A DNA stretch of 64,000 bases from Planctomycetota bacterium (GTDB lineage: Bacteria > Planctomycetota > PLA2 > JAEUHO01): assembly GCA_964228555.1 (NCBI GenBank), contig CAXQZU010000022.1:15695-79694 (forward strand), in the 5' to 3' direction. Shown here piece by piece: positions 28,488 through 46,054 of the stretch; positions within the stretch are counted from its first letter, which is position 1, and each line of letters begins with the position of its first letter. The notes under the pieces were generated by a model. The model worked only from the letters and a program-made list of their open reading frames with translations, was not told where the DNA came from and did no database searches. The position numbers and the translations under genes were made by a program.

Positions 28488-29087
28488 TCACTTGTTGAGC
28501 TGCTCCCGCATGGCGCGATACGCCGGTCCCCACGTGTCTTCCTTGCTGGACGCCGCGTCGTAGCTGGCCGCATCGCTGGCGTCCTTGCCGCCGACGGGGT
28601 ACCAGCGCCGGAGGAGGTCCCACGCCAGCTGGCGCCCGAGCTGGTCGCCGCCCTTGTCGTCCGGCCGCTTGATGAGGTCCAGCAGGTGCCGCTTGGCGAA
28701 GGTCTTGCGGCGGGTGGTGTCGTTGCGCTTGTCGGGAGCCAGCTCGGGGTCGCGAGAGGCCACGGCCGCATCGCTCAGGGCGCCGGCGGCACGCTGCCGC
28801 AGGCCCCGGTCGGCTTCCGGGTCGGCCAGGATCTTGGCCAGGTCCTCGGCCTTCACGCGGTTGCGCTTGCCCCAGTCCTCTTCCTGGTACTTGGCGTACT
28901 CGTCCACCTGGTCCTCGCGCGGGTCGCGCTCGGCCAGCTGGATCCACTTGTCCACCAGCGAGCCCAGCGCCTCGTGCCGGCGCTGCGCGTCGGCCACGGT
29001 CTCGGCCCGGGCCTGGCCCGAGCCGCCCCCCACGAGCCCCACGAGGGCCACGGCGACGAGGCCGCGCATGGCAAGCCCGGCGCGCAT
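28488..29087 (-). CDS. secreted hypothetical protein (last gene of the pseudopilin operon)
   Basis: Signal peptide MRAGLAMRGLVAVALVGLVGGGSG; charged, Trp-containing mature part. ATG shares a base with the upstream gene's TGA stop (TGATG). Confidence 0.6.
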   Translation of the reverse strand: MRAGLAMRGLVAVALVGLVGGGSGQARAETVADAQRRHEALGSLVDKWIQLAERDPREDQVDEYAKYQEEDWGKRNRVKAEDLAKILADPEADRGLRQRAAGALSDAAVASRDPELAPDKRNDTTRRKTFAKRHLLDLIKRPDDKGGDQLGRQLAWDLLRRWYPVGGKDASDAASYDAASSKEDTWGPAYRAMREQLNK

Positions 29088-30562
29088 CAGCGGAACTTCA
29101 CCGTGACGTCCACCATCGCGCCGGCGCAGCGGTCGCACAGGTAGGACACGGTCTGGCCCGTCTGGCTGGTCTTGCTGATGATGCCCTGTCCCTGGCAGGT
29201 GCGGCAGGGCGATGCATCGTCATCCTCGGCCACCTCGAAGAGCTGGCTGGTCTCGACGAACTGCGCCATGAGCCACGAGGCACGCGTCGGGGTGTCGGCC
29301 TTGACCCACCACTCGTCCTGCGTCGGCGGCTTGGGCAGCTGCATCGTGGGGGCAGCACCCCCACCACCCTGCTGGGGCCGGTTGCCCTGGCTGCCCGCGC
29401 TGGCCCGCGGCGGCTGGATGCGGGGCTTGCGCGCGATGAAGGTGCCCGATCCGTAGGAGGCCCGCGACCAGCCCGACTTGGCCACGCCCTGCCAGCGGGT
29501 GTCCCACCACAGGCGCACCTCGTCCACGGTCACGGCATCGATCTTGTTCATGCGCTCGGCCAGCGCCTCGAAGGCGGCATCCGGCAGCTCGCGCTTGGCC
29601 CACGAGCGGGCGTCCGCGAGCGTGACGTCCTTGTCGCGCACCTCCGCCTCGATCAGGCGGCGCACGATCTTGCGCGCGAACTCGTAGCGCGCGATCTGCC
29701 GGAAGTGCTTGTCACGGCGCTTGGTGAACTCGCCCTTGAGCGTCTCCAGCGCCTTGAGCACGGCCTCGCTGGACCCGGGGTGCTTGGCCTCGAAGCCCTC
29801 GATGCCCGCGCGCACGTTCTTGAACAGGTTGCTGTTGAGCTTCACCTTGAGGTCGCGCAGCGTGGCCAGCGCGGCCTGGTCCTTCAGCAGGGCCTCCACG
29901 CGCGTGGCACGCTGCTCGGCCGACGCGCGGTTGAGGAACTCGGGGTCGGCCGACGCGCGCCGGAAGGAGTCCAGCGCCAGCTGCAGCGCGCCCGCCCACT
30001 CGGCGAACTCCGCCACGCGGAAGGCCGTGCGGCCGTCCGTGCTGTCGAGGCCCTGCGGCGGGTCCTGCTGCGCCAGCTCGGCCGCCAGCTGGTCCACCAG
30101 CTGCTGCGAGGTCCACACCTCGCGCGGGTCGAGGTTCTCCTCGCTGCGGTCCACGACCTGCGACAGGGGCACGGGGAGCACCTCGCCGTTGCGTCGCAGG
30201 TAGATGGTCGTGGCGTCCTCGCGCTCGATGACGCCGTACATCTCCTGCTCGTCCTCGCCCACGCGCGTCACGAGCCGGTGGCCCTTGGCGGTGGACACGG
30301 CCCGGCCCTTCCACTCCCACTCCTCCTGGATGCGGTCGCGGTCGTCGGGCTCCAGGGCGTCCCAGGCGAAGGTGCGCACGGTGCCGCGCTGGAGGTCCTC
30401 GACCACCAGCAGGCGCTCGTCGCTGCGCTCGCGCAACGGCCGGCACTTGACGTTCTCGCCCGTCCTGAGGCGCAGCACGTCAGCCGACGCCGACTGCGGC
30501 TCCAGCGCCAGCGGCAGCAAGGCCAGCGCCACCACGAGGGCACGCGTGAGGAAGGTCGTCAT
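29087..30562 (-). CDS. secreted hypothetical protein with a C-terminal CxxC...CxxC zinc-ribbon-like motif
   Basis: Signal peptide MTTFLTRALVVALALLPLALEPQSASA. Strong RBS GGAGG 8 nt upstream. C-terminus has CRTCQGQG...CDRCAG. Follows the last pseudopilin by 3 nt. Confidence 0.7.
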   Translation of the reverse strand: MTTFLTRALVVALALLPLALEPQSASADVLRLRTGENVKCRPLRERSDERLLVVEDLQRGTVRTFAWDALEPDDRDRIQEEWEWKGRAVSTAKGHRLVTRVGEDEQEMYGVIEREDATTIYLRRNGEVLPVPLSQVVDRSEENLDPREVWTSQQLVDQLAAELAQQDPPQGLDSTDGRTAFRVAEFAEWAGALQLALDSFRRASADPEFLNRASAEQRATRVEALLKDQAALATLRDLKVKLNSNLFKNVRAGIEGFEAKHPGSSEAVLKALETLKGEFTKRRDKHFRQIARYEFARKIVRRLIEAEVRDKDVTLADARSWAKRELPDAAFEALAERMNKIDAVTVDEVRLWWDTRWQGVAKSGWSRASYGSGTFIARKPRIQPPRASAGSQGNRPQQGGGGAAPTMQLPKPPTQDEWWVKADTPTRASWLMAQFVETSQLFEVAEDDDASPCRTCQGQGIISKTSQTGQTVSYLCDRCAGAMVDVTVKFR

Positions 30563-30565
30563 GGG

Positions 30566-31027
30566 TTACCTCCGGGTCCCGCCGCGCCCGGGCGCCGCAG
30601 CCGCGGGCGCGAGCGAGGCAGGATCGAACATGGAACGGAACAGGGCGATGGGCTTGAGCACGTGCTCGACACGGCCCTCGCGCCGGATGGCCGCCAGCGC
30701 GACCACGCCGGCGCCCGTCGGGTCGAAGGTGCTGGGTGACCAGTCCACGACCACATCGTAGCCCGTCAGCGAGAGCGGGTAGGTCTTGCGCCCGGTGGAC
30801 GGCAGGTCGCGCGGCAGGCCGCCGTAGCGGTCCACCTCCTGCTGCACGATCACGAGCACCTCGGGCCGCAGGCGCCGCAGCTCGGTGTCGAGCCGGCGTG
30901 CGGAGAGGTGCTGCGTGCCGATGGCGAACAGGGGCAGGATGGCGAGGCAGCCCACGAGCAGCATGGACAGCGCCACCATCACCTCGAGGAAGGAGAAGCC
31001 GTGCTGGGCGCGCGCGGGAAGGCTCAA
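30566..31027 (-). CDS. small prepilin-type pseudopilin (minor pilin)
   Basis: TTG start coupled to the upstream stop (TTGA), with GGGAGG upstream. Leader MSLPARAQHG precedes FSFLEVMVALSMLLVGC (class III signal peptide, G-F-x-x-x-E). The rest of the 759-aa ORF in the track is an out-of-frame overlap artefact. Confidence 0.72.
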   Translation of the reverse strand: MSLPARAQHGFSFLEVMVALSMLLVGCLAILPLFAIGTQHLSARRLDTELRRLRPEVLVIVQQEVDRYGGLPRDLPSTGRKTYPLSLTGYDVVVDWSPSTFDPTGAGVVALAAIRREGRVEHVLKPIALFRSMFDPASLAPAAAAPGRGGTRR

Positions 31028-32298
31028 CGGCCACCTCCCGCGCGGAAGGTGCGGTCGCGCCACGCGGGCAGCGCCACCACTGTCGTGGCCGCCTGGCCCA
31101 CCCACACGTCCGCGCCCACGTCGTGGGACTGCTTGCCGGTGCCCCGCTCGCCACGCTCGACGGTCACGGTCAGGCCCACGGGGTCGATGCGCGTGGCGTC
31201 GTACCGCATCCACTCGGTGCCCACCTTGAGGAAGCGGGGCCCGCTGGCCCGGCCCAGCAAGGGCTCCAAGGACTCCACGGGCAGCCGCGTGGCCTCGGCC
31301 GGCACCGTGTCCGACAGCCTCGTGTCGCCGCGCTTGTAGCCGCCCAGCACGGGCGGGATCAGCGTGGCCTCCAGCCGCGCGTACTGCGGGAAGAGGTCGT
31401 CGCTGGGGTCGCCCAGGCTGGCCGGGTCGCGGAACAGCGGCCACGACTTGTCCAGCGCGCGCGTGCTGTCCCACACGGGGCCCACGTACGGCACGTCCTC
31501 GCCACCGCCGCGGTCGGTGCCCGACTCCCAGTCGCGCACGCCGGCGCGGCGCCACGTGACGGCGAAGTGCAGCACGCCCTCGTGCTTCTTCTCGAAGCGC
31601 GCACGCACCTCTGCCAGCGTGTCGAAGCTGGCCGGCTCCAGCAGCGAGTCCGGCCCCCCCACGGGCGACTGGAAGCCGCGGAAGAGGGTCAGCACGCTGG
31701 GACGCGCTGCGTCCAGCGGCACGGCCAGCCAGCACACCGTCATCAGGCCGCCCGTGGCCTTGAAGACGGTGCCGGCGGTGGCCCGCTCGAGCTCGGGCTT
31801 CGTGTAGGGCTTGGCCGTCTCGCCGGCACGCACGGGATCGCCGGCCGTGCGCAGGCGCGGGTCGTTGGCCTCGTCGCCGGTGTGCACCACGAAGGCCACG
31901 TAGGGGCAGGGATAGCCCTTGAGGCCCGGGTCCGCCTGGTCGCGCAGCAGCACCGTGCCGGCCCGCAGGCGCACGCCGACCGGCGGCGGAGGCGCCGGCT
32001 TGGGCATGCCGGGCTCCAGCATCTCCTCGCTGGGGACGATGGGCGGGTCGAGGCTGTCGGGCAGCGCGATGCGCTGCAGGTCGGCCAGCACCTCGGGCAG
32101 CAGCGTGTCCTGGCGGTCGGCCAGCTCGCTGTCGCGTGCCCCCACGCTGAACATCTGGGCGCCCTGCCGCATCATGAACACGGCCGTGCCGCCCAGGATG
32201 CTGAAGATCGCCACCGAGATCAGCAGCTCCAGCAGCGTGAAGCCGCCGCTGGCCGGGCCGCGCGGGCGCGAGGGGCGCTGGGTGGCCGCCGCGCTCAT
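31024..32298 (-). CDS. prepilin-type pseudopilin (large minor pilin, GspK/PilX-size)
   Basis: Leader ...GPASGG precedes FTLLELLISVAIFSILGG (G/FTLLE prepilin motif). 424 aa. ATG overlaps the upstream stop (ATGA). Confidence 0.85.
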   Translation of the reverse strand: MSAAATQRPSRPRGPASGGFTLLELLISVAIFSILGGTAVFMMRQGAQMFSVGARDSELADRQDTLLPEVLADLQRIALPDSLDPPIVPSEEMLEPGMPKPAPPPPVGVRLRAGTVLLRDQADPGLKGYPCPYVAFVVHTGDEANDPRLRTAGDPVRAGETAKPYTKPELERATAGTVFKATGGLMTVCWLAVPLDAARPSVLTLFRGFQSPVGGPDSLLEPASFDTLAEVRARFEKKHEGVLHFAVTWRRAGVRDWESGTDRGGGEDVPYVGPVWDSTRALDKSWPLFRDPASLGDPSDDLFPQYARLEATLIPPVLGGYKRGDTRLSDTVPAEATRLPVESLEPLLGRASGPRFLKVGTEWMRYDATRIDPVGLTVTVERGERGTGKQSHDVGADVWVGQAATTVVALPAWRDRTFRAGGGR

Positions 32299-33506
32299 CG
32301 CGTCCCCCCTGCGGGCGCCTTGCCGGCGGAGGTGTCGCCCTCGGCCACGGGCGGCGCGCCCATGTCGGCGCGGACCATGCCGCTGCGGCCCAGCTCGAGC
32401 ACCAGCGGCAGGTCGCCTGGACGCGTGGCGTCCCGCACCTGCAGCACCACGTCCTGCGGGTGCTGCACGGCGTCCAGGCGCCCGTTGGCGTAGCGCACGC
32501 GCAGCGGCAGGCCCTTGCCCGACGGCGAGAGCACGGAGAACTGGTAGCCGTCGGGCAGCTGGATGCGGTCGTCACGCGTGCTGAACACGCCGCGGAACAC
32601 AAAGCTGTCCATCCGGCCCTGGTAGGGCTGCGTGGCCGAGCCGATGCGCAGGGCCACGGCGCCCTCGGGCGGCACGGCGATGCGGCGCGGGAGCGTGGAG
32701 GCCGGCGGCGGCGGCGGGGCGCCGCGCGCCACGCCGGGCCGGCGCACCGGGCGCTCGAGGCCATCCACCTCGAACAGCGGCGCGGTGCCGTCGAAGGCCA
32801 CCCGCACGTGCACCCAGCGACCGTGGCCGCGCACCGGCGTGCCATCGGTCTCGAAGGTCACCCAGCTGCCCTCGCCGCGGCCGTCGGCAGGCAGCAGGTT
32901 CAGGCGCAAGCGCAGGTCGTAGTCGGAGCCCGTCACGCCGCGGAACAGCGACACCTCGTACGCGCCGGCCCCATCGACCAGCACCATGATGGGCGCCGCG
33001 CCGGTCGGCACGATCCACGCCTCCAGGTCCAGGCCCTCGGTGGTGGCGAAGGCCGCCTGCGGCTGGAAGGCAAGCACGCCCCCGCGGGCGAAGAGCGCGC
33101 CGCCGCCCGTGCGCCCACCCTCGGGGTCCACCTTCACGTCGCCCTGCACCGCCATCGGCAGCAGGCCGCTGGCGCCGTCGATGCGCTCGAAGGCGTGGCT
33201 GAGCACCGTCTCGGCCACGTGCACCGTGGCCTCGTCGGTCTCGCGGCCGTTCTCGTCCTTGGCCCGCTGGAAGGAGAGGGTGGCCAGCCGCCCGCCCATG
33301 CTGCGCGACTGCGCCCGGCGCGCCGCATCGAGGAGCTGCGTGCGGGCCAGCGTCATGCCCGTGGCCCGCCCCGCGCCCTGGATCCAGCCCACGGAGAGGC
33401 CGGCCATGACGGCCACGATGCCCATGATCACGATCAGCTCGACGAAGCTGAAGCCTCGCGGGCTGCCCGTGCGCAGGCTGCCGGGGGTGGCAGGCTCGAT
33501 CACCAT
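32295..33506 (-). CDS. prepilin-type pseudopilin (large minor pilin)
   Basis: Leader MVIEPATPGSLRTGSPRG precedes FSFVELIVIMGIVAVMAGL. 403 aa. ATG overlaps the upstream stop (ATGGTGA). Confidence 0.85.
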   Translation of the reverse strand: MVIEPATPGSLRTGSPRGFSFVELIVIMGIVAVMAGLSVGWIQGAGRATGMTLARTQLLDAARRAQSRSMGGRLATLSFQRAKDENGRETDEATVHVAETVLSHAFERIDGASGLLPMAVQGDVKVDPEGGRTGGGALFARGGVLAFQPQAAFATTEGLDLEAWIVPTGAAPIMVLVDGAGAYEVSLFRGVTGSDYDLRLRLNLLPADGRGEGSWVTFETDGTPVRGHGRWVHVRVAFDGTAPLFEVDGLERPVRRPGVARGAPPPPPASTLPRRIAVPPEGAVALRIGSATQPYQGRMDSFVFRGVFSTRDDRIQLPDGYQFSVLSPSGKGLPLRVRYANGRLDAVQHPQDVVLQVRDATRPGDLPLVLELGRSGMVRADMGAPPVAEGDTSAGKAPAGGTR

Positions 33507-34153
33507 CCCTTGCGGTCGTCCTCGGTGTTGGGCATGCCGTCCTCGCCCATGCTGAAGACCTGGAAGCCGTTGGGGTTCACGAACCCGCCAGCCTCCTCCT
33601 TCCACGGCTTGGGCTGCACGGCACCCTGCGTGCGCGAGATGTAGGTGGGCGGGTCGCGGTCGGCCTGCACGTAGGCCGTGTTCACGAAGTAGATGAGCGG
33701 GTTGCCCCAGCCATCGACGATCTCGCGCAGCTCCACGCCGCGGCTCGTGGCCGCGGCGGCCAGCCGGTCGTCGTCGCTGTTGGCGAGGTCGCGCTCCTCG
33801 TTGAACTCGGCGTCGGTGCCCACCGAGGGCCAGTAGAGGGCCTGATAGAGCGCCTCGATGCCCTCGTTCTCGCCGTTGCTCGTGTGCTTGATGGGCGTCC
33901 CGACGCTGCCCGCCGCGAGGTGGATGTCCTTGAGCAGCACGGGCGGGTACATGCCGTGCTTGCCCTTCCACGCATCCGAGAGCGCCTTCACGCGACGCAG
34001 CACGTCGTCGGTCTGCACCTGCGGGCCGCGCTTGATCCAGATCTGGACCACGACCACGCCCAGGCCGGCCAGCACGGCGATGATGCCCATCACCACGAGG
34101 ATCTCGATGAACGAGAAGCCAGCCTGGCGTCGACGGGAGGCGAGCATGCGCAT
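33500..34153 (-). CDS. GspG/PilA-like major pseudopilin
   Basis: Leader MRMLASRRRQAG precedes FSFIEILVVMGIIAVLAGL. GspG-type C-terminal module (DGWGNPLIYF ... NPNGFQVFSMGEDGMPNTEDD). AGGAG 8 nt upstream of the ATG verified at 34153. Confidence 0.88.
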   Translation of the reverse strand: MRMLASRRRQAGFSFIEILVVMGIIAVLAGLGVVVVQIWIKRGPQVQTDDVLRRVKALSDAWKGKHGMYPPVLLKDIHLAAGSVGTPIKHTSNGENEGIEALYQALYWPSVGTDAEFNEERDLANSDDDRLAAAATSRGVELREIVDGWGNPLIYFVNTAYVQADRDPPTYISRTQGAVQPKPWKEEAGGFVNPNGFQVFSMGEDGMPNTEDDRKGW

Positions 34154-34191
34154 GCGGGGATCTCCTGGCGGGCGGCGGGAGCCGGCCCGGG

Positions 34192-37100
34192 CTACTTGCG
34201 GACGCGGACGACCCGGATGTCCTTGACCTTGACGTCGTACGGGAGGGCCGAGGGCGACCAGCCGCCGAGCCACAGCTCGGCCTTGCCGCTGACGCCCTTG
34301 AAGCCGCTCACCTTGTCGCTCACCACGGGCACCTGCTCGTCGTTGAGGTACACGGCCATCAGGCCCTCGCGAGCGTCCTCGCGCACGATGCGCACCTCGA
34401 CCCACTCGCCCGCCGGCCAGGCACGCTCGTTGCCGGCCTCGTCGCGCACGCGGGCCACGTTGCCCTCCTTCCACTGCGCGGAGAGGCCGGTGCCGATGCG
34501 GGCCGCCACCAGGCCCTTCTCGAAGCACAGCAGCACGCCCGGATGGCGCCCGCCGATGCCGCCGGCGCCCGCGCCCGAGGTGCTCGTCGCACCCTGCACG
34601 CCCACGCCGAAGAAGATGTTGTTGGCGCGCGAGCCGTCCTCTTGCGTGGTCGGGATGCGCAGCTTGAGGCGCACCTCCTCGAAGGTGCTCTTGTCGAAGA
34701 AGGCCTGGCAGTAGGCCGCGACGGTGGGATCGGCCATCGAGCCGTCCTTGTCCGCCTTGCCCTCGAAGACGAGCAGCCCGCCCTCGGGCTCGAGGCTCAC
34801 CTTCACGCTGCTGCGCTCGGCGGTCACCCACTCCTTGGTGAGCTGGCTCATGCCCTCGAAGGACACGACCTTCTCCTCCAGCGAGCGCCAGTGCTTGACG
34901 CGCGTGAGGGTCTTGTCGGCCCACGTGCGCCACGCAGCCCACGGCTGCACCGGCTGGCCCTCCTCGGCGGCCGGCACCTTGCCCAGCACCAGCACGAGGT
35001 CCTGCTGGCAGGCGTCGTAGTTCTCGTCGCCACCCAGCCGGTAGCTGGCGTAGGCGCGCATGCACAGGGCCGCCGGCTGCTCCAGCAGGTTGCGGTCGTC
35101 GTTGCGCTTGAGGATGCGATCGCAAGCCTCGCGCGCCAGCTCGAAGCGCTTGCGGGCCGAGAGGTGCTGGGCCTGCAGGAGCACCCACGCCTCGCGCAGC
35201 GTCGCTGCCACGGTCTTGGCGCTCACGCCGTCGGCACGGGCTGCGCGCGAGGCAAAGGCCACGGCCGCCTCGTGGTGCTCGGCCGACGGCAGGGCCAGGA
35301 TGGCGTCGAGCCGGGCGTTCTCGTCGCCCAGCGCGGAGCGGCTGCTGCCCGCCTCGCCCTGCGTGGCGCGACCCGCGGTCTCCAGGCCCCAGCGCAGGTG
35401 GTTGAGGGCCAGCCAGCCGTCCAGCTCGCTCGCGTCCGGCGCAAGGTCCAGCGAGCGCCGCAGGGCCCGGATGGCCGCCGCGGTGTTGCCCGCGCGCGTG
35501 GCCAGCACGCCGGCGAGGTGCTCGAGGTAGGACGTGCGCGCCGCCTCCTCGCGCGCGGCCGAGAGGAACTGTCCCGCCTGCCCCGGCTCGATGCCCAGCG
35601 GCGGCAGGGCCGCCGCGGCCACGGCGGCGGGATCGGCGGCCGGCGCCGCGGGGTCGGCCGGCGGCGGGGCCTTGAGCGCCATCGCGATCAGGGCGCGGCC
35701 CAGCGAGGGCGACACGGTCTCGTCGTCGCGGCGGCCCGGCGAGGCGCCCTGGCGCAGGGCCAGCTCGCAGGCCTCGAAGGCGCCCGCCGCAGCGCGCGTC
35801 TCGCCCAGGCGCCAGTGGGACAGGCCCAGGTTGTAGAGCGCCTGGGCACGCCACGCCCCGGCCGCCTCGGCCGAGGTGGCCGCCATCGCGTAGGCGCTCT
35901 TGGCGCCCGCGAGGTCGCCCAGGGCGTAGAGCACGCCACCCCGGGCGAGGAGAGCGCGCGGGTGGTCACCACGCTGCGAGAGCGCGGCGTCGGCAGCCTG
36001 GCGGGCCTGCGGCAGCTCCCCCACGCGCAGCGCTGCCTCGGCACGGCGCACCTGCGCATCGAACGAGGCCCCCGCGCGCCCGTAGGCGGCCAGGGCGTCG
36101 CGATCGCGGCCCAGGGCGGTGAGCGCATCACCCAGGCCCAGCGCCGCGCGCTCGTTGCCCTCCTCCAGGCCCTTGGCCTTGGTGAAGTAGGCCAGCGACT
36201 GGTCCGGCAGGCCCATGCCCACCAGGGCCGCATCGCCCAGACGGATCCACGGCTCGGCCCGGGTGGGCACGGCCTTGGCGTAGGCCGAGAGGGCCCGCAG
36301 CGCGGCCTGCTCGTCCTTGAGGGCGTTGTAGGCCTCGACGAGCGAGACCAGCACCTCGGCCTGCACCTCGGGCGGGTGGGCCTTCTCGGCCACGGCGCGT
36401 GCACGCTCCAGCAGCAGCACCGCGCGACGCCAGCCCTCGCGCTGCTCCTTGCCCGTGCGCCCCAGGGCCGCCATCTCGCGCGCGGCCTCCTGCAGGCCTC
36501 GCAAGTTCATCGTGGCCTCGACCGGCTCGATGCCCAGCACGCGACGCACGGCCTGCTCGTAGGTGTTCTCCACCGTGCGGCGCAGGTTCCACAAGCCGAA
36601 CTTGGCGGCCGGGTCCGTGTTGCGGTTGCCCTTGCTCTTCTTGGCCACGCTCGTGGGGTCCAGCCCCGCCTTGGTGGCCTGCTCGGCGGAGCCGATGAGG
36701 GCCCATTCCACCTGCATCTTGTCGATGCCCTCGCCACCCGCGAGGCGGCGCTCCAGCGCCCGGAAGGCGCTCTCGCCACGGCGCACGCCGTCGATGGCCA
36801 CGATGGCCACGAAGGTCTGCTTGCCCCCCACGTCCACCCAGTCATAGACGTCCTCGGGCGTGGGCACGTACTGCTCGAAGACGACCGGCGCCACCTGCAG
36901 CGGCACCGAGGCGTCGTTGGGGTCCAGCGCGGGCAGCGTGCCCCGCAGCAGGCGCCGCGCCGAGGGCGCGAGGCCCGGCACCGTGGGAGGCAGGGGCACC
37001 TCCAGCGCGATCTCCGGCGGCAGGTCGATCTCCACCGGGGGCAGCGGGCGCGTGTCGCTCACGCGCTCGTAGGGGTTGCGGCGGTCGCGGCCGCCCGACT

Positions 37101-37419
37101 CGAAGGAGGGCCGCGCCATCGGCGCGGGGGCCAGCGTGCGCTTGGCGGCGAAGCCGGCCAGCACGGTGTCCTCGCGCGGGCGCGGAGGCGGCCCGGAGAG
37201 ATCGGCCTTGTCGCGCAGCACCACGGCGGTGAACACCACCACGGCCGCCGCGTAGGCCAGCAGGGCCCGCTCCTTGCCCATGACGCGGTCCAGCGCCGCG
37301 GTGACGGCGAGGGCGCCCAGGCCCAGCAGCAGGAACACGAAGAAGGTGCCCAGGGCCGCGCCCACCAGCGGGGCGGGGGCCAGCACGGGCGCCAGGGTCA
37401 GCATGGTGTCGAGGCTCAC
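34192..37419 (-). CDS. large polytopic-anchored TPR-repeat protein of the pilus-like cluster
   Basis: GTG start overlapping the upstream stop (GTGA); alternative ATG at 37404. N-terminal TM helices (LGTFFVFLLLGLGALAVTAAL; AAVVVFTAVVL) then about 900 aa of TPR-like repeats (AYAKAVPTRAEPWIRLGDA, AYAMAATSAEAAGAWRAQALYNLG). Only 38 nt from the gspG-like gene, so no room for a promoter. Confidence 0.75.
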   Translation of the reverse strand: MSLDTMLTLAPVLAPAPLVGAALGTFFVFLLLGLGALAVTAALDRVMGKERALLAYAAAVVVFTAVVLRDKADLSGPPPRPREDTVLAGFAAKRTLAPAPMARPSFESGGRDRRNPYERVSDTRPLPPVEIDLPPEIALEVPLPPTVPGLAPSARRLLRGTLPALDPNDASVPLQVAPVVFEQYVPTPEDVYDWVDVGGKQTFVAIVAIDGVRRGESAFRALERRLAGGEGIDKMQVEWALIGSAEQATKAGLDPTSVAKKSKGNRNTDPAAKFGLWNLRRTVENTYEQAVRRVLGIEPVEATMNLRGLQEAAREMAALGRTGKEQREGWRRAVLLLERARAVAEKAHPPEVQAEVLVSLVEAYNALKDEQAALRALSAYAKAVPTRAEPWIRLGDAALVGMGLPDQSLAYFTKAKGLEEGNERAALGLGDALTALGRDRDALAAYGRAGASFDAQVRRAEAALRVGELPQARQAADAALSQRGDHPRALLARGGVLYALGDLAGAKSAYAMAATSAEAAGAWRAQALYNLGLSHWRLGETRAAAGAFEACELALRQGASPGRRDDETVSPSLGRALIAMALKAPPPADPAAPAADPAAVAAAALPPLGIEPGQAGQFLSAAREEAARTSYLEHLAGVLATRAGNTAAAIRALRRSLDLAPDASELDGWLALNHLRWGLETAGRATQGEAGSSRSALGDENARLDAILALPSAEHHEAAVAFASRAARADGVSAKTVAATLREAWVLLQAQHLSARKRFELAREACDRILKRNDDRNLLEQPAALCMRAYASYRLGGDENYDACQQDLVLVLGKVPAAEEGQPVQPWAAWRTWADKTLTRVKHWRSLEEKVVSFEGMSQLTKEWVTAERSSVKVSLEPEGGLLVFEGKADKDGSMADPTVAAYCQAFFDKSTFEEVRLKLRIPTTQEDGSRANNIFFGVGVQGATSTSGAGAGGIGGRHPGVLLCFEKGLVAARIGTGLSAQWKEGNVARVRDEAGNERAWPAGEWVEVRIVREDAREGLMAVYLNDEQVPVVSDKVSGFKGVSGKAELWLGGWSPSALPYDVKVKDIRVVRVRK

Positions 37420-38336
37420 GAACGGCCCTCCTGCGCGTCGAGATCGAGGCTCGCCTCCGGGCGCACGGCCACGCTCTCCAGGGTCAAGGTCACTTCCACG
37501 AGGCCGGTGGCGGCCTTGGCACGCGACGGCTGCTGCGCGACCAGCCCGGCGATGGGCGTGGGCTGGCGCGGGTCGGTCAGCAGGTCCAGCACCGCCTCCA
37601 CGCATGGCGCAGGCGCCGTCATCACGATCTTGACCGGCCACTCCTGCAGGAACGCATCCGGGCCCGTCGAGCGCGGGTTGTCGAAGGTGACGCTGTCGAT
37701 CGAGGTGGCACCGTTGCGGATGGCGACGTCTGCGATGCGCGCCACCAGCGCCAGGTTGGCCAGGCGACGCTCCAGGTCCTCGCGAGGCACGCTCGTCACG
37801 CTGGCGAAGCCCAGCAGCTCGGCCTCGAGGTCCATGTCGGCGCGGTTGGCGCGCGTGCGCAGCACGTTCCACACGTCCGAGAGCAGCGAGGAGAAGGCCA
37901 CGTTGGGGTTGCCCGTGCGGAACAGGGTCGTGCGGTCCACGGCCAGCCGCTCGGCATCCTTCAGGGCCTGCTCGGCCGCCTTGGCATCGCCCTCGAAGGC
38001 GGATGCGCCCACGCCACCGCGCGCGTAGGCCGCCACCAACGCCATGCGCACCCACGCCTGGATGCGGTCACCGCCGGCCGAGGCCGGGTCGAGCGCCGCG
38101 GCCATCGTGCGCACCGAGGCGTCGAACTGCTCGGCGTTGGCCCGCAGCGTGGTGCCCACGCCGTCGCGCGGCAGCACCAGCGTCTTGACCGAGGACTCGG
38201 CCGAGAGCGCCTGCGCCTCCGCCTCCTCGGGGCTGGGCGTGATCACGTGCACGGCGACCAGGCCCAGCAGGAGGATGCCCAGCCCGAACAGGACGGGGCG
38301 CCAGAAGGAACCGTAGCGTTGCCAGAGCTCGTCCAC
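37416..38336 (-). CDS. GspM/PilO-like bitopic inner-membrane component
   Basis: Short cytoplasmic N-terminus, one TM (FWRPVLFGLGILLLGLVAVHVI) and a periplasmic domain, sitting directly after the PilM/N-like gene. GTG start with GGAGG 7 nt upstream. Confidence 0.65.
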   Translation of the reverse strand: MDELWQRYGSFWRPVLFGLGILLLGLVAVHVITPSPEEAEAQALSAESSVKTLVLPRDGVGTTLRANAEQFDASVRTMAAALDPASAGGDRIQAWVRMALVAAYARGGVGASAFEGDAKAAEQALKDAERLAVDRTTLFRTGNPNVAFSSLLSDVWNVLRTRANRADMDLEAELLGFASVTSVPREDLERRLANLALVARIADVAIRNGATSIDSVTFDNPRSTGPDAFLQEWPVKIVMTAPAPCVEAVLDLLTDPRQPTPIAGLVAQQPSRAKAATGLVEVTLTLESVAVRPEASLDLDAQEGRS

Positions 38337-38345
38337 AGGGACCTC

Positions 38346-40301
38346 CTACTTCTGCTGGGCGGCCGCGCGGGCCGCCTCCTCGAGGATGGAACGGGCCTGG
38401 TCTTGCGCCAGGCCGGGGAAACGCTCGGAGAGGACACGCTTGATGTCCTCCACCTTGACCTCGCCGAAGCCCACGCGCGCCTCGAGGCCCCCGGGCGTCA
38501 GGCCCACGAAGGCCGTCGGCTGCTTCTCGTCGTCGAGGCGGATGCGCGCCAGCGTCACGGGGCGGCCCGTGTCGCCCGGGCGGCCCAGCACCTCGCCCGG
38601 CCACAGCTCGAGCTCGAACTCGCCGTCCTGGCCCGGCTTGGGCGGCTTGAAGCGGGTCAGCACGCGCACCACGAGGCCGCGCGTGTTCTCCTCGCAGGCC
38701 TTCACGAACGCCGTGTACTTCTGCTCGGGCTTGTCCACGTTGGCCATCACGCGCAGCGTGGCCAGCACGCGCGCGTCGCGCGCACGCATGGGCTCGGTGC
38801 TGCGCAGGCCGGCCTCGTAGCCGCTGGCCGGGCGGGTGGCCGACTTGGGCCGCACCCACCCGAACTCGTTCACGGGGTCGTCCGTCACGAGGCGCACCGA
38901 CTGTGCGTAGAGCTCGGGCGCCGCGGAGAGGCGCGTCGTGATCTCGCTCCACGCCTGCGCCAGCAGCACGCCCGGCGCCGCGCGCTCGGCCAGCATCCGG
39001 TGCTTGACCTCGCCCTCCTGCGCGCCCACCAGCGCGTCCCGCACGCCACGGTCCTTCTTCTTGACCTCCTCGGCGCGCGCCTTGATCGAGTCGGCACGGT
39101 CCATCCAGGCCTGGCTGGCCTCGCTGCGGCCCGTGTAGAGCAGGCCCAGCGACACCAGCATGACGGCCGCAGCACCGATGGTGAAGATGCCCTTGGTGAG
39201 GAAGTCGCGCTGGCGGCGCATGGCTGCCGGCAGCACCTCGAGCACGAAGGCCGCCGGGGCCATCGCCATCTGCGCGAGGCCCACCGTCACCGAGAACTCG
39301 TGGCCCTGCTCCTCGGCCAGCCGCCGCTCGTCCTCGGAGAGGCCCGAGAGGTCGCACAGCACGAAGGGGTTGAAGCGCTCCACCGGCACGCCCATGGCCT
39401 GCTTGAGGTAGAGGTCGAGGCCCTTGAGGCTGGCGCCGCCACCCGACAGCAGCACGCGGTCGATCTTGAGGTCGGGCATGCGCGTCTGGGCGCGCGCGAT
39501 CATCAGCGTGCTCTGGATCAGGGACGACATCTGGCCGGCCACGCCCATGATGGCGTTGGCGACCTTCTCCGCGGTGGGGTCGGCGTAGCGCGCCTGCGCC
39601 TTGGGCGTCACGTCGCCCTTGCCCACCTTCATCGTCTCGGCCTTGCCCTCGGTCGTGGAGAAGGCCTGCACCAGCGCGTCGGTGAAGGCCTTGCCGCCCG
39701 GCGTGGCGTTCCTGGCGAAGAGCAGCTCGCCGCCACGCTGGATGGCGATGTCGAGGTTCTCGGCGCCCACGTTGACGAGGATCGCGGTCTCCTCCTCGGT
39801 GTAGGTGGCGTTGACCGCGAAGGCGTTGAACAGCGCCACGCTGTTGGGGCAGCAGGCACCCACCTTGAGGCCGCCGCTGCCCAGCGAGCCGATCTGCGCA
39901 TCCACGTAGCGGTTGCGCGCCAGCGCCACGAGGATGGTGTCCTCGCTGCGGTTGCCGTCCGGGTCCGGCAGGTTGAGCTTGCGGTAGTCCGCGCTCACGT
40001 CGCCGCCGGACTGCGAGCCCACCTCCTCCACCTCGAACTTCATCAGGGTGCGCAGGCGCCACTCCGGCACCGGCGGGACCTGGCTGTAGCGGATGATCAC
40101 GTCACGCCCGCTCATGCCCAGCGTCACCGGCGCCCCGGCCAGGCCACGGGCGGCCAGCGCCCGGCCGGCCACCGGGCGCGTGGCCTCGTCCACGCGTTCC
40201 GAGAACAGCTTCTGCACGACGAAGCCTGCGCCCTTGCGACGCAGCTTGACGGCCCTGAGGGAGTGGCTGCCCAGCGTGACACCGAGCCCGGTGGTGGCCA
40301 T
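38346..40301 (-). CDS. PilM-PilN fusion / GspL-like protein (cytoplasmic actin-like ATPase-fold domain + TM + periplasmic domain)
   Basis: N-terminus resembles PilM (GVTLGSHSLRAVKL...; actin-fold glycine loops LLSGGGASLKGLDLYL), followed by a TM helix (IFTIGAAAVMLVSLGLLYTG) and a ~260 aa periplasmic part. Confidence 0.8.
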   Translation of the reverse strand: MATTGLGVTLGSHSLRAVKLRRKGAGFVVQKLFSERVDEATRPVAGRALAARGLAGAPVTLGMSGRDVIIRYSQVPPVPEWRLRTLMKFEVEEVGSQSGGDVSADYRKLNLPDPDGNRSEDTILVALARNRYVDAQIGSLGSGGLKVGACCPNSVALFNAFAVNATYTEEETAILVNVGAENLDIAIQRGGELLFARNATPGGKAFTDALVQAFSTTEGKAETMKVGKGDVTPKAQARYADPTAEKVANAIMGVAGQMSSLIQSTLMIARAQTRMPDLKIDRVLLSGGGASLKGLDLYLKQAMGVPVERFNPFVLCDLSGLSEDERRLAEEQGHEFSVTVGLAQMAMAPAAFVLEVLPAAMRRQRDFLTKGIFTIGAAAVMLVSLGLLYTGRSEASQAWMDRADSIKARAEEVKKKDRGVRDALVGAQEGEVKHRMLAERAAPGVLLAQAWSEITTRLSAAPELYAQSVRLVTDDPVNEFGWVRPKSATRPASGYEAGLRSTEPMRARDARVLATLRVMANVDKPEQKYTAFVKACEENTRGLVVRVLTRFKPPKPGQDGEFELELWPGEVLGRPGDTGRPVTLARIRLDDEKQPTAFVGLTPGGLEARVGFGEVKVEDIKRVLSERFPGLAQDQARSILEEAARAAAQQK

Positions 40302-40353
40302 GGGGAAGTGCTCCGGAACGTGATGCGAGAGGGGTGGGGAAGGGTGGAGACGG

Positions 40354-42813: not shown

Positions 42814-43180
42814 GCCTTGCCGCTCCTTCGTGCCCGGGCCGCCCTCGCCCCGGGCATACGCCCCCCGCCAGCCGGCCAAGGCTGCTCGGAAGGCCTCCGG
42901 ACCCTGGGTCAACCCATTGGGTAAACCGGCACCCTACCCCCACGGAACGACGGGACGCAACGCCCAACCCAGCGCGGCCTTGCGCGTGGCCACGGCCCGG
43001 GCCGGCCCCAGGGCCGGCCTGCGGCCGGCGTGACGAGCCGGCTCGACCCTGGCAGCGAAGTTGACACCTGCTGGTAACGAGGTAGCGCCGCCCTCTCGGG
43101 TCCTTAGTCTCGGCTGCCGTGCTGCCCCTGCCTCCCCGGCCCGCAGGCGGCCTCGGGTCACCGCAGGCCGCGGCGGGCTC

Positions 43181-45232
43181 CTAGGCGCGGGGCTTGGGCG
43201 GCTGCTCCTCGTCCATGCCGTAGCGCTCCAGCTTCTTGCGCAGGCCCAGGCGCGAGAGGCCCAGTTCCTCGGCGGCGCGGCTCTTGTTCCACGCGTGCCG
43301 CTGCAGCGTGCCGCGCAGCACGCGGCGCTCGAGGTCCTCGACCAGGCCCTTGAGGCCCTGGTCGGGCAGGGGTGCCCTCGGATCCGGCGGGCGGTAGGCA
43401 AGCAGGCGTGCGCTCAGGTGCTCGGGGCGGATCACGCCGCCACTCTCGAGGGCCAGCAGCCGCTGCACCTCGTTGCGCAGCTCCCGCACGTTGCCGGGCC
43501 AGTCGTAGGCGGCCATCAAGTCCAGCGCGCCGGGCTCGAGGCGCACGGGGCGCGTGGGATCCCCCAGCTCGCGCAGGAACCAGGCCACCAGCGCCGGGAT
43601 GTCCTCCCGCCGGTCGCGCAGCGCCGGCACCTCGATGACCACCCCGGCGAGCCGGTGGTAGAGGTCCTGCCGGAAGCGGCCGTCGGCGATGAGGCTCCCG
43701 AGGTCCACCTGCGTGGCCGCCACCAGCCGCACGTCCACGGGGGTGGCAGCCTTGGCACCCAGCCGCCGCACGGTGCCGCCCTCGAGCACCCGCAGCAGCT
43801 CCTTCTGCAGCTCCGCGGGCAGCTCGCCCACGTCGCGCAGGAACAGCGTGCCCTCGTGGGCCTGCTCGAAGAGGCCGGCGTGGTCCCGCGGCGCGGCGGG
43901 CACCGCCCCCCGCACGGCGCCGCGGAACTCGCTCTCCACGAGGCCCGGCGGCAAGGCGCCGCAGGCCTCCACCACGAAGCGACCGCGACGCTGGGCCCCG
44001 TTGAAGTGGATGGCTCGCGCCAGCAGCTCCTTGCCCGTGCCGGGCTCCCCCACCACCAGCACCGGCACGTCCAGGTCGGTCACCCGGTCCACGACACGCA
44101 GCAGCGTGCGCATGGCCGGGCTGCGTCCCACGATGGCGTCGTAGGCGTACTTGAGCCCCAGCTCGTGAGACTGCTTGGCCAGGTCCTCCCGGGCCTGCCG
44201 CAGGGCCGTGGTGCGCAGGCGCAAGGCCTTGCGCAGGCGGTCGTTGAGGCGCTCGATGCGGCGGGACTGGCGCACCGCCTCGCGCCGGCGCATGCCCATC
44301 TCGCGCCGCTGGCGCGCGTTGCGGATGGCGATGGCCGCCAGCCGCGCGTAGCCCTCGAGGATGCGCACGTGGAAGCCATCGAAGCGCCCGGACTCGTAGG
44401 TGTTGTCCAGGTAGATGGCGCCCAGCACCTGCCCCTCGCCGGGCAGCGGCACGCACACCAGCGAGCGCAGCGAGAGGTTGACGATGCTGGCAGCGCCGTC
44501 GAAGCGCTCGTCGCAGATGGCGTCCTCGCTGAGCACGCTGGCGCCCTCGCGGATCACCTGGGCCGCCACGCTGACGGAGTAGGCGCCGTCGGCATCGACC
44601 AGGTCGCGGTGGTCGCGCAGGCGGGCGCGGCGCACCCGGAAGTGGTCGCCCTCGTTGAGCAGCAGGATGCCCCGGGCCGCCCCGCACAGCTGGATGGCGG
44701 CGTCCAGCACGGCGTCGAGCAGCTCGTCCTCGTCGCTGACGGCCTGCAGCTTCTCGTTGAGCTCCATCAGGTGGCCCAGCGCGCGGATCTCGCGCTGGCG
44801 CTCGGCCAGCGTCACGCTGCCGGTGGCGCCAGCGAGGCCCATGTCGGTGGCGTGCGGGTCGGCTTGCGCCGCCTGCTCCACGAGGCCCGGGACCGCCTTG
44901 ACGGCCGGCTTGGGACGGATGGCCCCGGGCAGGAACACGCGCACCTGCGTCTCGCCCACCTCGATGGCATCGCCCTCGGCAAGGCGTGCGTCCAGCACGG
45001 TGGCGCCGTTGAGCATCGTGCCGTTGCGCGAGCCCAGGTCGGTCACGCGCCAGCCATCGCTGCCCAGGTAGATGCGGCAGTGGCGCCTGGAGAGCGTGCG
45101 ATCCTCGACCGGCACGTCCACGCCGGCATCGCGCCCCACCACGACGGCCTCGGCGCGCAGCTCGAAGACCCTCTGGTCGTGGCCGGGCGACTTCACGAAC
45201 AGGCGCAGCGGGTCGCGTGCCATGCCCACCAC
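43181..45232 (-). CDS. FHA-GAF-AAA+-HTH bacterial enhancer-binding-protein homologue with a degenerate GAFTGA motif
   Basis: N-terminal FHA (GRDAGVDVPVEDRTLSRRHCRIY...LGSRNGTMLNG), central GAF-like region, AAA+ with Walker A GEPGTGKE. The GAFTGA position reads ESEFRGAVRGAVPAAP. C-terminal HTH. GTG at 45232 or ATG at 45223. Confidence 0.88.
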   Translation of the reverse strand: MVGMARDPLRLFVKSPGHDQRVFELRAEAVVVGRDAGVDVPVEDRTLSRRHCRIYLGSDGWRVTDLGSRNGTMLNGATVLDARLAEGDAIEVGETQVRVFLPGAIRPKPAVKAVPGLVEQAAQADPHATDMGLAGATGSVTLAERQREIRALGHLMELNEKLQAVSDEDELLDAVLDAAIQLCGAARGILLLNEGDHFRVRRARLRDHRDLVDADGAYSVSVAAQVIREGASVLSEDAICDERFDGAASIVNLSLRSLVCVPLPGEGQVLGAIYLDNTYESGRFDGFHVRILEGYARLAAIAIRNARQRREMGMRRREAVRQSRRIERLNDRLRKALRLRTTALRQAREDLAKQSHELGLKYAYDAIVGRSPAMRTLLRVVDRVTDLDVPVLVVGEPGTGKELLARAIHFNGAQRRGRFVVEACGALPPGLVESEFRGAVRGAVPAAPRDHAGLFEQAHEGTLFLRDVGELPAELQKELLRVLEGGTVRRLGAKAATPVDVRLVAATQVDLGSLIADGRFRQDLYHRLAGVVIEVPALRDRREDIPALVAWFLRELGDPTRPVRLEPGALDLMAAYDWPGNVRELRNEVQRLLALESGGVIRPEHLSARLLAYRPPDPRAPLPDQGLKGLVEDLERRVLRGTLQRHAWNKSRAAEELGLSRLGLRKKLERYGMDEEQPPKPRA

Positions 45233-45301
45233 GAGGCAACCGTCGTGCCAGAGCGCGGCCCCCCGCGGCCTCCACGCCGCGCCCCGGGCGTCACCGAGGC
45301 G

Positions 45302-46054
45302 CTACGCCAGCCCCAGCGCCTGCGCCGCGGCGGCCAGCGCAGCCTGCTCCACGCGCAGGGCCGTGGCGCCCAGCTGCACCGTGGGGACACCCGCCTCCCG
45401 CGCCCGGGCCACCTCCGCGTCCACGAAGCCCCCCTCCGGCCCCACCAGCAGCCAGGGCAGGTCGGCCCCCGGTGCACGCTGCCCCAGCCAGCCGAGCAGT
45501 CGCGGCGCCTGCGGGTCGGGGTCGAGCAGCACGGCGCCGCAGGGGGGCAGGCCGTCCACCAGGGCCGACAGGTCGCGCACCGGCTCCACGCGCAGCATGC
45601 GTGCGCAGCCGTTGCCCTTGGCCGCCTCGCGCGCCACGCGCTCCCAGCGCGCGGCACGACGCGCCGGCAGGTCCTCGCGGCCCGCCGGCGTGCGTGCACA
45701 GCGCAACGGCACCCAGCGCTCCACGCCCAGCCAGGCCAGCCCTTCCACGAGGTCGTCGGCCCGCGAGGGCTCGGGGATGGAGGACGCCACCACCAGCGCC
45801 CGGGCCGGTCGCCGGTCGGGTGCCTCCGCCAGCACCTCGAGGCAGGCGGCGCGCGCGTCGGCCGTGCGCAGCCGCGCCCGGCGCGTGAGGCCGGTGCTGT
45901 CGAACAGCACCACCTCGTCACCCGCGGCCACCCGACGCACGCGCACGAGGTGCGCGGATTCCTCGGCGTCGAGCGTGACCTCGCCCTGCAGCGGCAGGTG
46001 CGCCACCCAGGCGCGCTCCGGGCCGCTGCCGCGGCTGGCGCCCGCGGTGGCCAT
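45302..46054 (-). CDS. rsmE: 16S rRNA (uracil1498-N3)-methyltransferase
   Basis: RsmE motifs (HLVRVRRVAAGDEVVLFD; LLVGPEGGF; GVPTVQLGATALRVEQAAL). ATG overlaps the upstream stop (ATGA). Confidence 0.82.
   Translation of the reverse strand: MATAGASRGSGPERAWVAHLPLQGEVTLDAEESAHLVRVRRVAAGDEVVLFDSTGLTRRARLRTADARAACLEVLAEAPDRRPARALVVASSIPEPSRADDLVEGLAWLGVERWVPLRCARTPAGREDLPARRAARWERVAREAAKGNGCARMLRVEPVRDLSALVDGLPPCGAVLLDPDPQAPRLLGWLGQRAPGADLPWLLVGPEGGFVDAEVARAREAGVPTVQLGATALRVEQAALAAAAQALGLA

Follow-up and report, generated by a model that had tools for sequence, protein, structure and literature searches.

A conserved eleven-gene operon of uncultured Planctomycetota probably encodes the non-motor half of a type IV filament machine

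The pilus cluster of Akkermansia muciniphila, a member of the PVC superphylum, is listed as five genes, Amuc_1098-1102, none of which is described as a motor component (PMC10688800). Amuc_1098 is a secretin with N-terminal TPRs (PMC4960237). As a rule, the genes of a type IVa pilus (T4aP) system are distributed among several loci (Denise et al. 2019, PMC6668835). The Kil system of Myxococcus xanthus, a type IV filament machine, has several FHA-domain proteins, and kinase-type signalling has been proposed for it (PMC8460266).

The locus described here comprises eleven co-directional minus-strand genes, A to K, at positions 28488-45223 of the window, the whole 64-kb stretch of DNA that was analysed. 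The genes were delimited by GC3 frame analysis, and independent gene calls on public contigs gave the same eleven lengths. The genes, and a promoter element preceding B, are as follows.

43181-45223, minus strand: A, 680 aa, FHA/GAF enhancer-binding-protein homologue
42956..42971, minus strand: sigma-54-type -24/-12 element TGGGTTGGGCGTTGCG, 158 nt upstream of the B start codon
40354-42813, minus strand: B, 819 aa, double-FHA transmembrane protein
38346-40301, minus strand: C, 651 aa, PilM-like domain fused to a membrane and periplasmic part
37416-38336, minus strand: D, 306 aa, bitopic protein
34192-37419, minus strand: E, 1075 aa, TPR protein
33500-34153, minus strand: F, 217 aa, GspG-like candidate major subunit
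32295-33506, minus strand: G, 403 aa, pilin-like protein with a lectin-like domain
31024-32298, minus strand: H, 424 aa, large minor (pseudo)pilin
30566-31027, minus strand: I, 153 aa, small minor (pseudo)pilin
29087-30562, minus strand: J, 491 aa, secreted zinc-ribbon protein
28488-29087, minus strand: K, 199 aa, predicted secreted protein, last gene of the operon

From A to K, the intergenic gaps are 367, 52, 9, -4, 38, -7, -4, -4, 3 and -1 nt. The start-stop overlaps are therefore real, and the tightly packed block described in the initial annotation is confirmed. The gene order is kept in approximately 16 related loci of other organisms (11 MAG loci at 37-92% identity, a 43%-identity relative and further loci), and those with names are all Planctomycetota. 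A-K is a genuine, tightly conserved 11-gene operon of uncultured Planctomycetota. Gene content, domain folds, conservation and the promoter element form the observed part of our account; the roles assigned to the proteins are proposals.

In brief, A combines FHA, GAF, AAA+ Sigma54_activat and HTH_8 domains (Pfam) with NifA/NorR-like matches in NCBIfam, which bears out its first description as an FHA/GAF enhancer-binding-protein (EBP) homologue. A motif comparison showed canonical GAFTGA and Walker B motifs in the orthologues, whereas in this genome the GAFTGA loop has become GAVPAA and Walker B has become FLRD, without DE. Because both motifs are lost, sigma-54 activation by A appears doubtful in this genome. 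The -24/-12 element (consensus GGAATGGGCGTTGCA) is the top-scoring one upstream of B in all related loci having upstream sequence, and is also present in L023, an 85%-identity relative.

B carries two canonical FHA domains (Pfam, 102 bits), a disordered linker, a single predicted TM helix (241-259 in one delimitation, 238-263 in another) and approximately 560 periplasmic residues, which bears out the double-FHA, single-TM protein with a large periplasmic portion that had been reported. The periplasmic residues are predicted to form a CBM-like jelly roll, a mutarotase-like beta-sandwich and a helical bundle. B had also been called YscD-like. With SctD of type III secretion systems (YscD/PrgH; Chlamydia CdsD) it shares a cytoplasmic FHA-fold, a single TM helix and an extensive periplasmic domain, so the name holds for the topology (Yop-YscD_cpl, 92.7 bits), but the periplasmic part is carbohydrate-binding-like rather than YscD-like, and the FHA pair is of the canonical, GarA-like type that binds phosphothreonine. 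The two sandwiches and the helical bundle are not ring-building motifs. Two FHA proteins had been taken to imply Ser/Thr-kinase input; such input to the filament module is probable, but the window contains no Ser/Thr kinase gene. The FHA-rich Kil machine provides a precedent. It is, however, Tad-type (CpaF, TadB/C, Flp pilins) and has an FHA domain on the ATPase itself, whereas the components here are PilM/GspG-type and the FHA domains are on an EBP and a bitopic periplasmic protein.

Residues 7-343 of C match PilM_2 (74 bits), and a TM helix is predicted at 371-389; the PilM-like actin-fold domain, TM helix and 260-aa periplasmic domain of C make up a GspL-like architecture. The best curated family is Akkermansia Amuc_1101 (E 8e-39), and this match takes in both the PilM domain and the TM helix. 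C also matches TIGR01175 pilM and, in the PDB, Myxococcus PilM (3jc8, E 3e-23). Similarity of the periplasmic part to PilO, PilN, GspM or GspL was not detectable. The proposed PilM-PilN/GspL-like fusion is thereby retained for its PilM_2 domain and fused TM layout, its likeness to PilN being one of architecture. D is bitopic (predicted TM helix 15-33) and occupies the PilO/GspM position. It has no family or PDB match, no detectable similarity to PilO, PilN, GspM or GspL, and a sub-threshold GspL_C match (E 0.033), and its designation as PilO/GspM-like applies to topology and position, without a sequence homologue. E has the TPR repeats (Pfam) and the length first assigned to it, but is not as polytopic as suggested, with two to three predicted TM helices, all N-terminal. 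Its C-terminal region is ConA/LamG-like, with a weak 3keto-disac_hyd match (E 0.01). We did not find a PilP or GspC HR-domain protein.

The four consecutive genes F-I all encode G|F(S/T)xxE leaders. The Pfam N_methyl cut-off was passed by F (30 bits), H (28 bits) and I (23 bits); G has the motif (G|FSFVE) and falls slightly under the cut-off at 17 bits. All four can be kept as prepilin-motif proteins. F has the leader ...QAG|FSFIE, no Cys and a C-terminal DGxPNTEDD loop, and its profile matches pilin N-termini and the C-termini of the GspG structures 3g20 and 1t92. The GspG-like assignment of F is upheld by this loop, though the curated GspG cut-off is missed (22.5 vs 88.85 bits). F is a candidate major subunit. 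G carries a LamG/ConA-like lectin domain (weak Laminin_G_3; profile matches to pilin N-termini and SHBG LG domains). H is a large prepilin-leader minor (pseudo)pilin with PDB likeness detectable for its N-terminus only, and I is a small one with weak ComGE and TIGR02532 matches. F, G and H have weak TIGR01710 and GspH/GspJ N-terminal matches. In sister loci, a 1,700-aa LamG protein is encoded among the pilins.

J, with its signal peptide, SH3-like beta domains, region of helical repeats and C-terminal zinc ribbon of four nearly invariant Cys (CxxC...CxxC), is the secreted zinc-ribbon protein noted earlier. Its C-terminal strand, ...TVKFR, is highly conserved. K has a predicted signal peptide and no Pfam or NCBIfam match. 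A protein of approximately 190-200 aa follows J in L013, L018, L020, L021 and a JGI contig, and sequence similarity to K was found in L009, L013 and L020.

A secretin had been reported missing from the block. This is correct for the block itself, but one is encoded in the window, 9.6 kb upstream of the operon on the opposite strand, a linkage seen in this genome only.

54839-57760, plus strand: secretin with N-terminal TPRs, 973 aa (PF00263, 90.5 bits), candidate outer-membrane partner

Its best NCBIfam family is Amuc_1098 (E 8e-32), and the Amuc_1098 and MshL pilus secretins rank ahead of GspD. Together with C, the secretin links the locus to the Akkermansia cluster: both have their best families there, and the two secretins have N-terminal TPRs in common. 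The scores are, however, far under the equivalog cut-offs (134 vs 650; 110 vs 750 bits), D has no Amuc_1100-family match, the secretin is unlinked, and the operon adds the FHA-EBP, B, E, four pilin-like genes, J and K.

The block was said to lack ATPase, platform and peptidase genes, and the same is true of the window, where T2SSE/PilB, T2SSF/PilC and prepilin peptidase are absent among the called genes. We also looked beside the operon in other genomes, as had been proposed, and found none within 10 kb of the locus in the approximately 16 related loci, for which about 10 kb on each side was covered. Describing the layout as not canonical is right in that no motor, platform or peptidase gene is adjacent, but overstated; split loci are normal for T4aP, and the missing motor is therefore not exceptional. 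The three components are most likely encoded elsewhere, and we assume that they are supplied in trans.

With the T4aP machine (PilMNOPQ and fimU-pilVWXY1) the locus shares a PilM homologue and multi-locus organisation, and its pilin-like block followed by the large secreted J resembles minor pilin and PilY1 clusters (PMC7541494; PMC13533445). Here, however, PilM is fused to a membrane partner, we found no PilP, D cannot be recognised from its sequence, J is without a PilY1 beta-propeller, and F is GspG-like rather than a disulfide-bonded T4a major pilin.

[quoted passage not shown] The alignment/pseudopilus module initially recognised is supported as a T4aP/T2SS-like type IV filament reading. 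C and D would form the inner-membrane alignment scaffold and F the polymerising subunit, while G, H and I may act as priming or tip minor (pseudo)pilins, with the lectin-like domain displayed by G. E, J and K would be lineage-specific periplasmic accessories; J may be a PilY1-like tip partner, given how strongly its C-terminal beta-strand is conserved. The filament would exit via the TPR-fused Amuc_1098-like secretin, and other loci would supply the GspE/PilB ATPase, GspF/PilC platform and prepilin peptidase, the usual arrangement in T4aP. B is a putative system-specific transmembrane adaptor: its cytoplasmic FHA pair would read phosphothreonine marks set by a Ser/Thr kinase from an unlinked locus, its carbohydrate-binding-like domains in the periplasm would contact glycan or envelope, and we propose that it thereby gates or positions assembly. 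Transcription from the conserved -24/-12 promoter may be controlled by A.

An unlikely but reasonable alternative is a genuine T2SS, in which F would build a short periplasmic pseudopilus pushing folded exoproteins (e.g. glycoside hydrolases) through the secretin, with no surface fibre, and B would take the GspC role in substrate selection or secretin contact. The GspL architecture of C, the GspG hallmarks of F (no Cys, a calcium-loop-like C-terminus matching GspG structures), the weak TIGR01710 and GspH/GspJ matches of F, G and H, and a small set of one major and three minor pilin-like genes all fit this. However, the operon has no GspE, GspF, GspO or GspC, the curated Gsp models are all below cut-off, C matches PilM_2 and pilM with no T2SSL/GspL among the matches listed, and the secretin is closest to pilus secretins with GspD behind. 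The lectin-like domain on G and the LamG protein of the sister loci better fit an exposed adhesive fibre.

Two neighbours further upstream are kept even in the distant locus L018, and RsmE (45302-46054), which separates them from A, is not conserved in that locus. A GT2 polyprenyl-phosphate glycosyltransferase gene is found nearby.

46054-52238, minus strand: polytopic TPR protein (1433 aa, approximately 10-12 TM) and AsnB-like amidotransferase

These neighbours, the GT2 gene, the carbohydrate-binding-like folds in B, G and perhaps E, and the unseen motor genes would suit a kinase-regulated complex for envelope glycan synthesis or export, made of B-E, AsnB, GT2 and the polytopic TPR protein, with the prepilin-leader proteins as membrane-anchored periplasmic lectins or chaperones. 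We regard this as very unlikely, since complete class III leaders with Glu5 occur in four consecutive genes, such leaders together with a PilM homologue and a pilus-type secretin typify type IV filament systems, and the operon contains neither a polymerase nor an exporter for polysaccharide (Wzx, Wzy, Wza, ABC). Hardly credible is a motor-less or unconventionally energised system, in which the FHA domains of B would recruit some driver other than a GspE/PilB-family ATPase. The consistent absence of ATPase, platform and peptidase within approximately 10 kb in all related loci examined agrees with it, but to our knowledge no characterised type IV filament machine works without an ATPase of the PilB/GspE type and a platform of the PilC/GspF type, T4aP loci are commonly split, inspection of the relatives extended to about 10 kb on either side only, and given the prepilin leaders a peptidase would be encoded elsewhere anyway.

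On the other side of the operon lies a possibly associated gene.

24471-27581, minus strand: M, 1036 aa, membrane-anchored (T2SSG, E 2e-15)

In M, a GspG-like DxWGxxxxY...GxDGxxGTxDD repeat occurs three times, and a prepilin leader is absent. An M homologue is located downstream in L020, together with ScpB, and the position of M is taken by a SurA_N-type protein in L021 and the JGI contig.

The window has a G+C content of approximately 75%, and raw ORF lists were swamped by spurious frames. Gene calling by third-position G+C analysis (GC3) gave eleven co-directional genes on the minus strand, at positions 28488-45223, here named A to K:

A, minus strand, 680 aa, homologue of FHA-GAF enhancer-binding proteins
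B, minus strand, 819 aa, membrane protein with two FHA domains and a periplasmic part
C, minus strand, 651 aa, PilM domain followed by a TM helix and a periplasmic part
D, minus strand, 306 aa, protein in the PilO/GspM position
E, minus strand, 1075 aa, TM-TPR protein
F, minus strand, 217 aa, GspG-like protein with a prepilin leader
G, minus strand, 403 aa, protein with a prepilin leader and a lectin-like domain
H, minus strand, 424 aa, protein with a prepilin leader
I, minus strand, 153 aa, protein with a prepilin leader
J, minus strand, 491 aa, secreted protein
K, minus strand, 199 aa, secreted protein, last gene of the operon

All eleven lengths were reproduced by independent gene calls on public contigs encoding an identical C protein. 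The intergenic gaps from A to K are 367, 52, 9, -4, 38, -7, -4, -4, 3 and -1 nt. Because of these gap sizes, B to K look like a single operon with translational coupling, and the 367-nt spacer separates them from A. The minus-strand block with start-stop overlaps described in the initial annotation is thus confirmed by the GC3 analysis, the independent gene calls and the gap lengths.

The named homologues are found exclusively in metagenome-assembled genomes (MAGs) of Planctomycetota/Planctomycetia; no cultured organism was among the carriers of the locus, and every locus seen belongs to an uncultured one. Eleven GTDB species representatives, with protein identities of 37-92%, share the gene order, a TPR membrane protein and RsmE followed by A to K; some of their contigs cover only part of the operon. 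The same order was found in a relative whose PilM-like protein is 43% identical, and in further loci found via the J and B families, the former comprising 564 clusters at 50% identity. We found no description of this planctomycete locus in the literature searched. We place the locus in the type IV filament superfamily, as a planctomycete branch that is real, widespread and uncharacterised and that has a distinctive adaptor with FHA and carbohydrate-binding-like domains.

Type IV filament machines carry a class III leader, G|F-x-x-x-E followed by a hydrophobic helix, on their subunits. Leaders of the form G|F(S/T)xxE are present on all of F, G, H and I. The Pfam N_methyl model, with a cut-off of 21.2 bits, is passed by F (30.3 bits), H (28.0 bits) and I (23.2 bits), and G, with the motif RG|FSFVE, falls just below it at 17.0 bits. 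The prepilin motifs initially proposed for these four proteins are upheld. F has no cysteine. The profile built from F orthologues matches the N-termini of pilins as well as the C-terminal loop seen in GspG structures (3g20, 1t92, 29jd). F itself scores 22.5 bits against a cut-off of 88.85 for TIGR01710 (GspG) and has no reported match to Pfam T2SSG; its homologue in a related locus, L021, has a faint one. G contains a LamG-like domain. In a sister subclade (L021 2784-7982, and a JGI contig), the G-like and H-like pilin genes flank a gene for a protein of 1,732-1,777 aa. In L021 this protein matches Laminin_G_3 weakly, and the insert may be a giant adhesin.

Residues 7-343 of C match PilM_2 (PF11104) with 74.1 bits (cut-off 27), and PDB 3jc8, the PilM of Myxococcus, is matched with an E-value of 2.9e-23. 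C thus represents the actin-like PilM protein of type IVa pili (T4aP); its 107.8 bits to TIGR01175 are under that model's stricter cut-off of 133. The PilM domain is followed by a TM helix and 260 periplasmic residues. D is bitopic, and its topology and gene position fit a PilN/PilO pair. No homologue of D was found in Pfam, NCBIfam or PDB, and neither D nor the periplasmic part of C gave a PilN/PilO signal by these three or by profile-profile comparison. Assigning D to PilO/GspM/Amuc_1100, and the periplasmic domain of C to PilN/GspL, was also tried with phmmer and profile searches of PDB, which came back empty. When D was compared to the C-terminal part of C with hhalign, the TM region alone was aligned (probability 56%), and the globular parts reached 0.2%. 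The single match of D to GspL_C has an E-value of 0.033.

In E, two or three TM helices at the N-terminus are combined with TPRs and possibly a ConA-like C-terminus. In the related locus L020 (3396-6391), the E gene is present as two ORFs of 856 aa and 142 aa, so that the lectin-like C-terminal part stands alone; either a frameshift or a true split of the domains would account for it. J is secreted, and its structure model (pLDDT 88) resembles no known fold family. Its C-terminus holds a four-Cys ribbon, and J is the secreted protein with a C-terminal Zn ribbon noted initially. The ribbon is followed by a highly conserved terminal TVKFR strand. By analogy with the strand donation idea for PilY1 (PMC13533445), J may act in a PilY1-like manner, donating this strand to a minor pilin. 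K is secreted and has no family match.

No GspE/PilB/PilT ATPase, GspF/PilC platform protein or prepilin peptidase was found in the called genes of the 64-kb window, or within approximately 10 kb of the related loci (11 MAG loci and further related contigs). The claim that the block lacks these three components stands, and no ATPase or platform gene lies adjacent, just outside, in the inspected flanks of the relatives. The locus is carried, among others, by contigs JAJDEN010000008.1 and CBDCTJ010000007.1, the latter (3.07 Mb) being the source of L011. In L011 (154-6997), on this MAG contig, a 7-kb insertion parts the regulator from B. Its ORF sizes made it a promising place for a motor gene; it encodes a HEAT-repeat protein and two proteins without family match.

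That the block holds no secretin is likewise correct, but one is present in the window, at 54839-57760 on the strand opposite to the operon. It has N-terminal TPRs, and the same TPR fusion has been described for the PilQ of Akkermansia (PMC4960237). The Secretin domain scores 90.5 bits (cut-off 27.5), and TIGR02515 (PilQ) 69 bits versus a cut-off of 284. The linkage to the operon, over 9.6 kb, was seen in one genome; a metagenome scan for it gave one 5-kb contig, and extension past the right edge of the window only 6-kb contigs. The region 54839-64000 (plus strand) encodes, in order, the TPR-fused secretin, a 1263-aa protein, a TPR protein of 454-465 aa without family, and a TolQ/ExbB-like gene.

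[quoted passage not shown] The best curated family of C is the Akkermansia Amuc_1101 PilM-like family (8e-39), with 133.9 bits versus an equivalog cut-off of 650, and that of the secretin is the Amuc_1098 pilus secretin, with 110.2 versus 750 bits. Neither family is thus reached at equivalog score, though both are the best-scoring ones, and by these scores kinship to the Amuc_1098-1102 cluster is distant and not orthologous membership. Only PilM and the generic domains for prepilins and secretins reached a curated threshold for membership in the nearest systems, the Kil apparatus included.

The initial annotation held the layout to be non-canonical for T2SS, T4aP, Tad and Com, which is overstated. 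Pfam gave no match to T2SSC, T2SSL or T2SSM, the families of GspC (HR domain), GspL and GspM, and none to the Tad/Kil families (CpaF/TadA ATPase, TadB/TadC, Flp-type pilin) in any gene of the window. Since the genes of a T4aP system are usually distributed among several loci (PMC6668835), and the pilus cluster of Akkermansia was published as five genes only (PMC10688800), the absence of the motor is expected for this class and not anomalous.

With regard to FHA domains, the Tad-like Kil apparatus (PMC8460266) comes closest among described systems. B carries two such domains and a single TM helix. We modelled it with AlphaFold2, using an alignment with 70 homologues (mean pLDDT 90). In the model, the cytoplasmic side consists of FHA1 (1-95), FHA2 (113-203) and a disordered linker, followed by the TM helix (238-263); the periplasmic side has two beta domains, a beta-sandwich at 289-417 and another at 424-613, and then a helical bundle (617-815). 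In the homologue alignment, both FHA domains keep invariant residues for phosphothreonine binding (GR, SxxH, N). A precomputed CBM_4_9 match was found on one homologue of B. In type III secretion, SctD (YscD/PrgH) has ring-building motifs after an FHA fold and a TM helix. No such motifs were found in B, and the top 60 matches of its fold search included no HR or PilP domain; its periplasmic part is carbohydrate-binding-like and not YscD-like. We suggest that B would link cytoplasmic phosphothreonine signalling to a periplasmic module of carbohydrate-binding-like type. The called genes of the 64-kb window include no Ser/Thr kinase, and none lies within approximately 10 kb of the locus in the relatives.

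The domains of A are FHA, GAF, Sigma54_activat (the sigma54-interaction domain, 176 bits), AAA_lid_14 and HTH_8. At residues approximately 433-468, the A of the window has GAVPAA for GAFTGA and FLRD for the Walker B FLDE; the remaining protein is intact and conserved. It thus lacks both the GAFTGA loop and the Walker B hhhhDE of sigma-54 enhancer-binding proteins. FLDE and GAFTGA are canonical in 9/9 aligned orthologues (GAYTGA in the distant L018), including the nearest other species with sequence over that region. The changes are not an assembly error, because a contig from an independent sequencing run (99.9% nucleotide identity) shows the same ones. As judged from these motifs, A may have lost the ability to hydrolyse ATP or to remodel sigma-54 in this organism.

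A sigma-54 target promoter, with GG at -24 and GC at -12, is present upstream of B. In each of the ten related loci whose upstream sequence is available, this element, GG-N10-GC with the consensus (T/A/G)GGAATGGGCGTTGCA, scored highest in the 400 nt before B. In the window it reads TGGGTTGGGCGTTGCG (42956-42971), and the same element is also found in L023. Its conservation ties the adjacent enhancer-binding protein to the operon. A promoter of A itself was also considered: a perfect TGGCAC-N5-TTGC at 45236-45250 (minus strand), the sole perfect sigma-54 consensus in the 64-kb window, lies directly upstream of the A start. The orthologous loci do not share it, and it was set aside. The region 20364-23074 (minus strand) encodes a PAS histidine kinase, a canonical NtrC-type sigma-54 response regulator with an intact GAFTGA, and an HtrA-like protease. 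The three genes show synteny with the operon region of L020 and may provide an alternative activator.

We infer the functional roles of all the operon proteins as follows. In brief, C and D would form the scaffold, F the filament subunits, with G, H and I as minor or tip subunits, and E, J and K would be lineage-specific periplasmic accessories. A T4aP/T2SS-like machine of the PVC type would employ the TPR-secretin and unlinked motor genes. As to the output, a fibre is favoured by the lectin-bearing pilins and the pilus-type secretin, and a secretion pseudopilus by the GspG-like subunit and the GspL-like fusion.

While much has been written on the type IV filament machines of Proteobacteria, Firmicutes and Archaea, those of Planctomycetota are, to our knowledge, hardly described; the members of this phylum are environmentally abundant, polysaccharide-degrading bacteria with an unusual envelope. 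The module has components for which the described systems offer no report: a double-FHA protein that is bitopic and has periplasmic domains of carbohydrate-binding-like type, an enhancer-binding protein with FHA and GAF domains, and at least four proteins without recognisable family (D, E in part, J and K). Should the FHA proteins gate assembly, Ser/Thr-kinase control of a type IV filament would be known from a second case, independent of the Tad-like Kil apparatus, and the module would be a tractable way into planctomycete surface fibres. A more specific reading, which we consider improbable, is a Planctomycetota-specific type IV filament machine that is phospho-gated and senses glycans. B would bind polysaccharide or envelope glycan in the enlarged periplasm via its CBM-like and mutarotase-like domains and pass the signal through the membrane to FHA-phosphothreonine interactions, which would license assembly, and a lectin-bearing filament (G, and the 1,700-aa LamG proteins of sister loci) would capture or import polysaccharides. 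If true, it would give a molecular identity to the idea of fibre-based polysaccharide uptake in planctomycetes.

Downstream of the operon, L020, L021 and a JGI contig, the three loci where this flank was seen, all have ScpB and a protein of M-like or SurA_N type. M (1036 aa), encoded at 24471-27581 (minus strand) in the window, with ScpB between it and the operon, is membrane-anchored and has three GspG-like repeats (DPWGKDLRY...GPDGKEGTADD and similar) and no prepilin leader; it may be a pseudopilin-related chaperone. On the other side, 46054-53750 (minus strand) encodes a polytopic TPR protein (approximately 10-12 TM), an AsnB-like amidotransferase, a methyltransferase and a GT2 polyprenyl-phosphate glycosyltransferase. 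The TPR protein and the amidotransferase are found upstream of the operon even in L018, and the genes of this region hint at envelope or pilin glycosylation.
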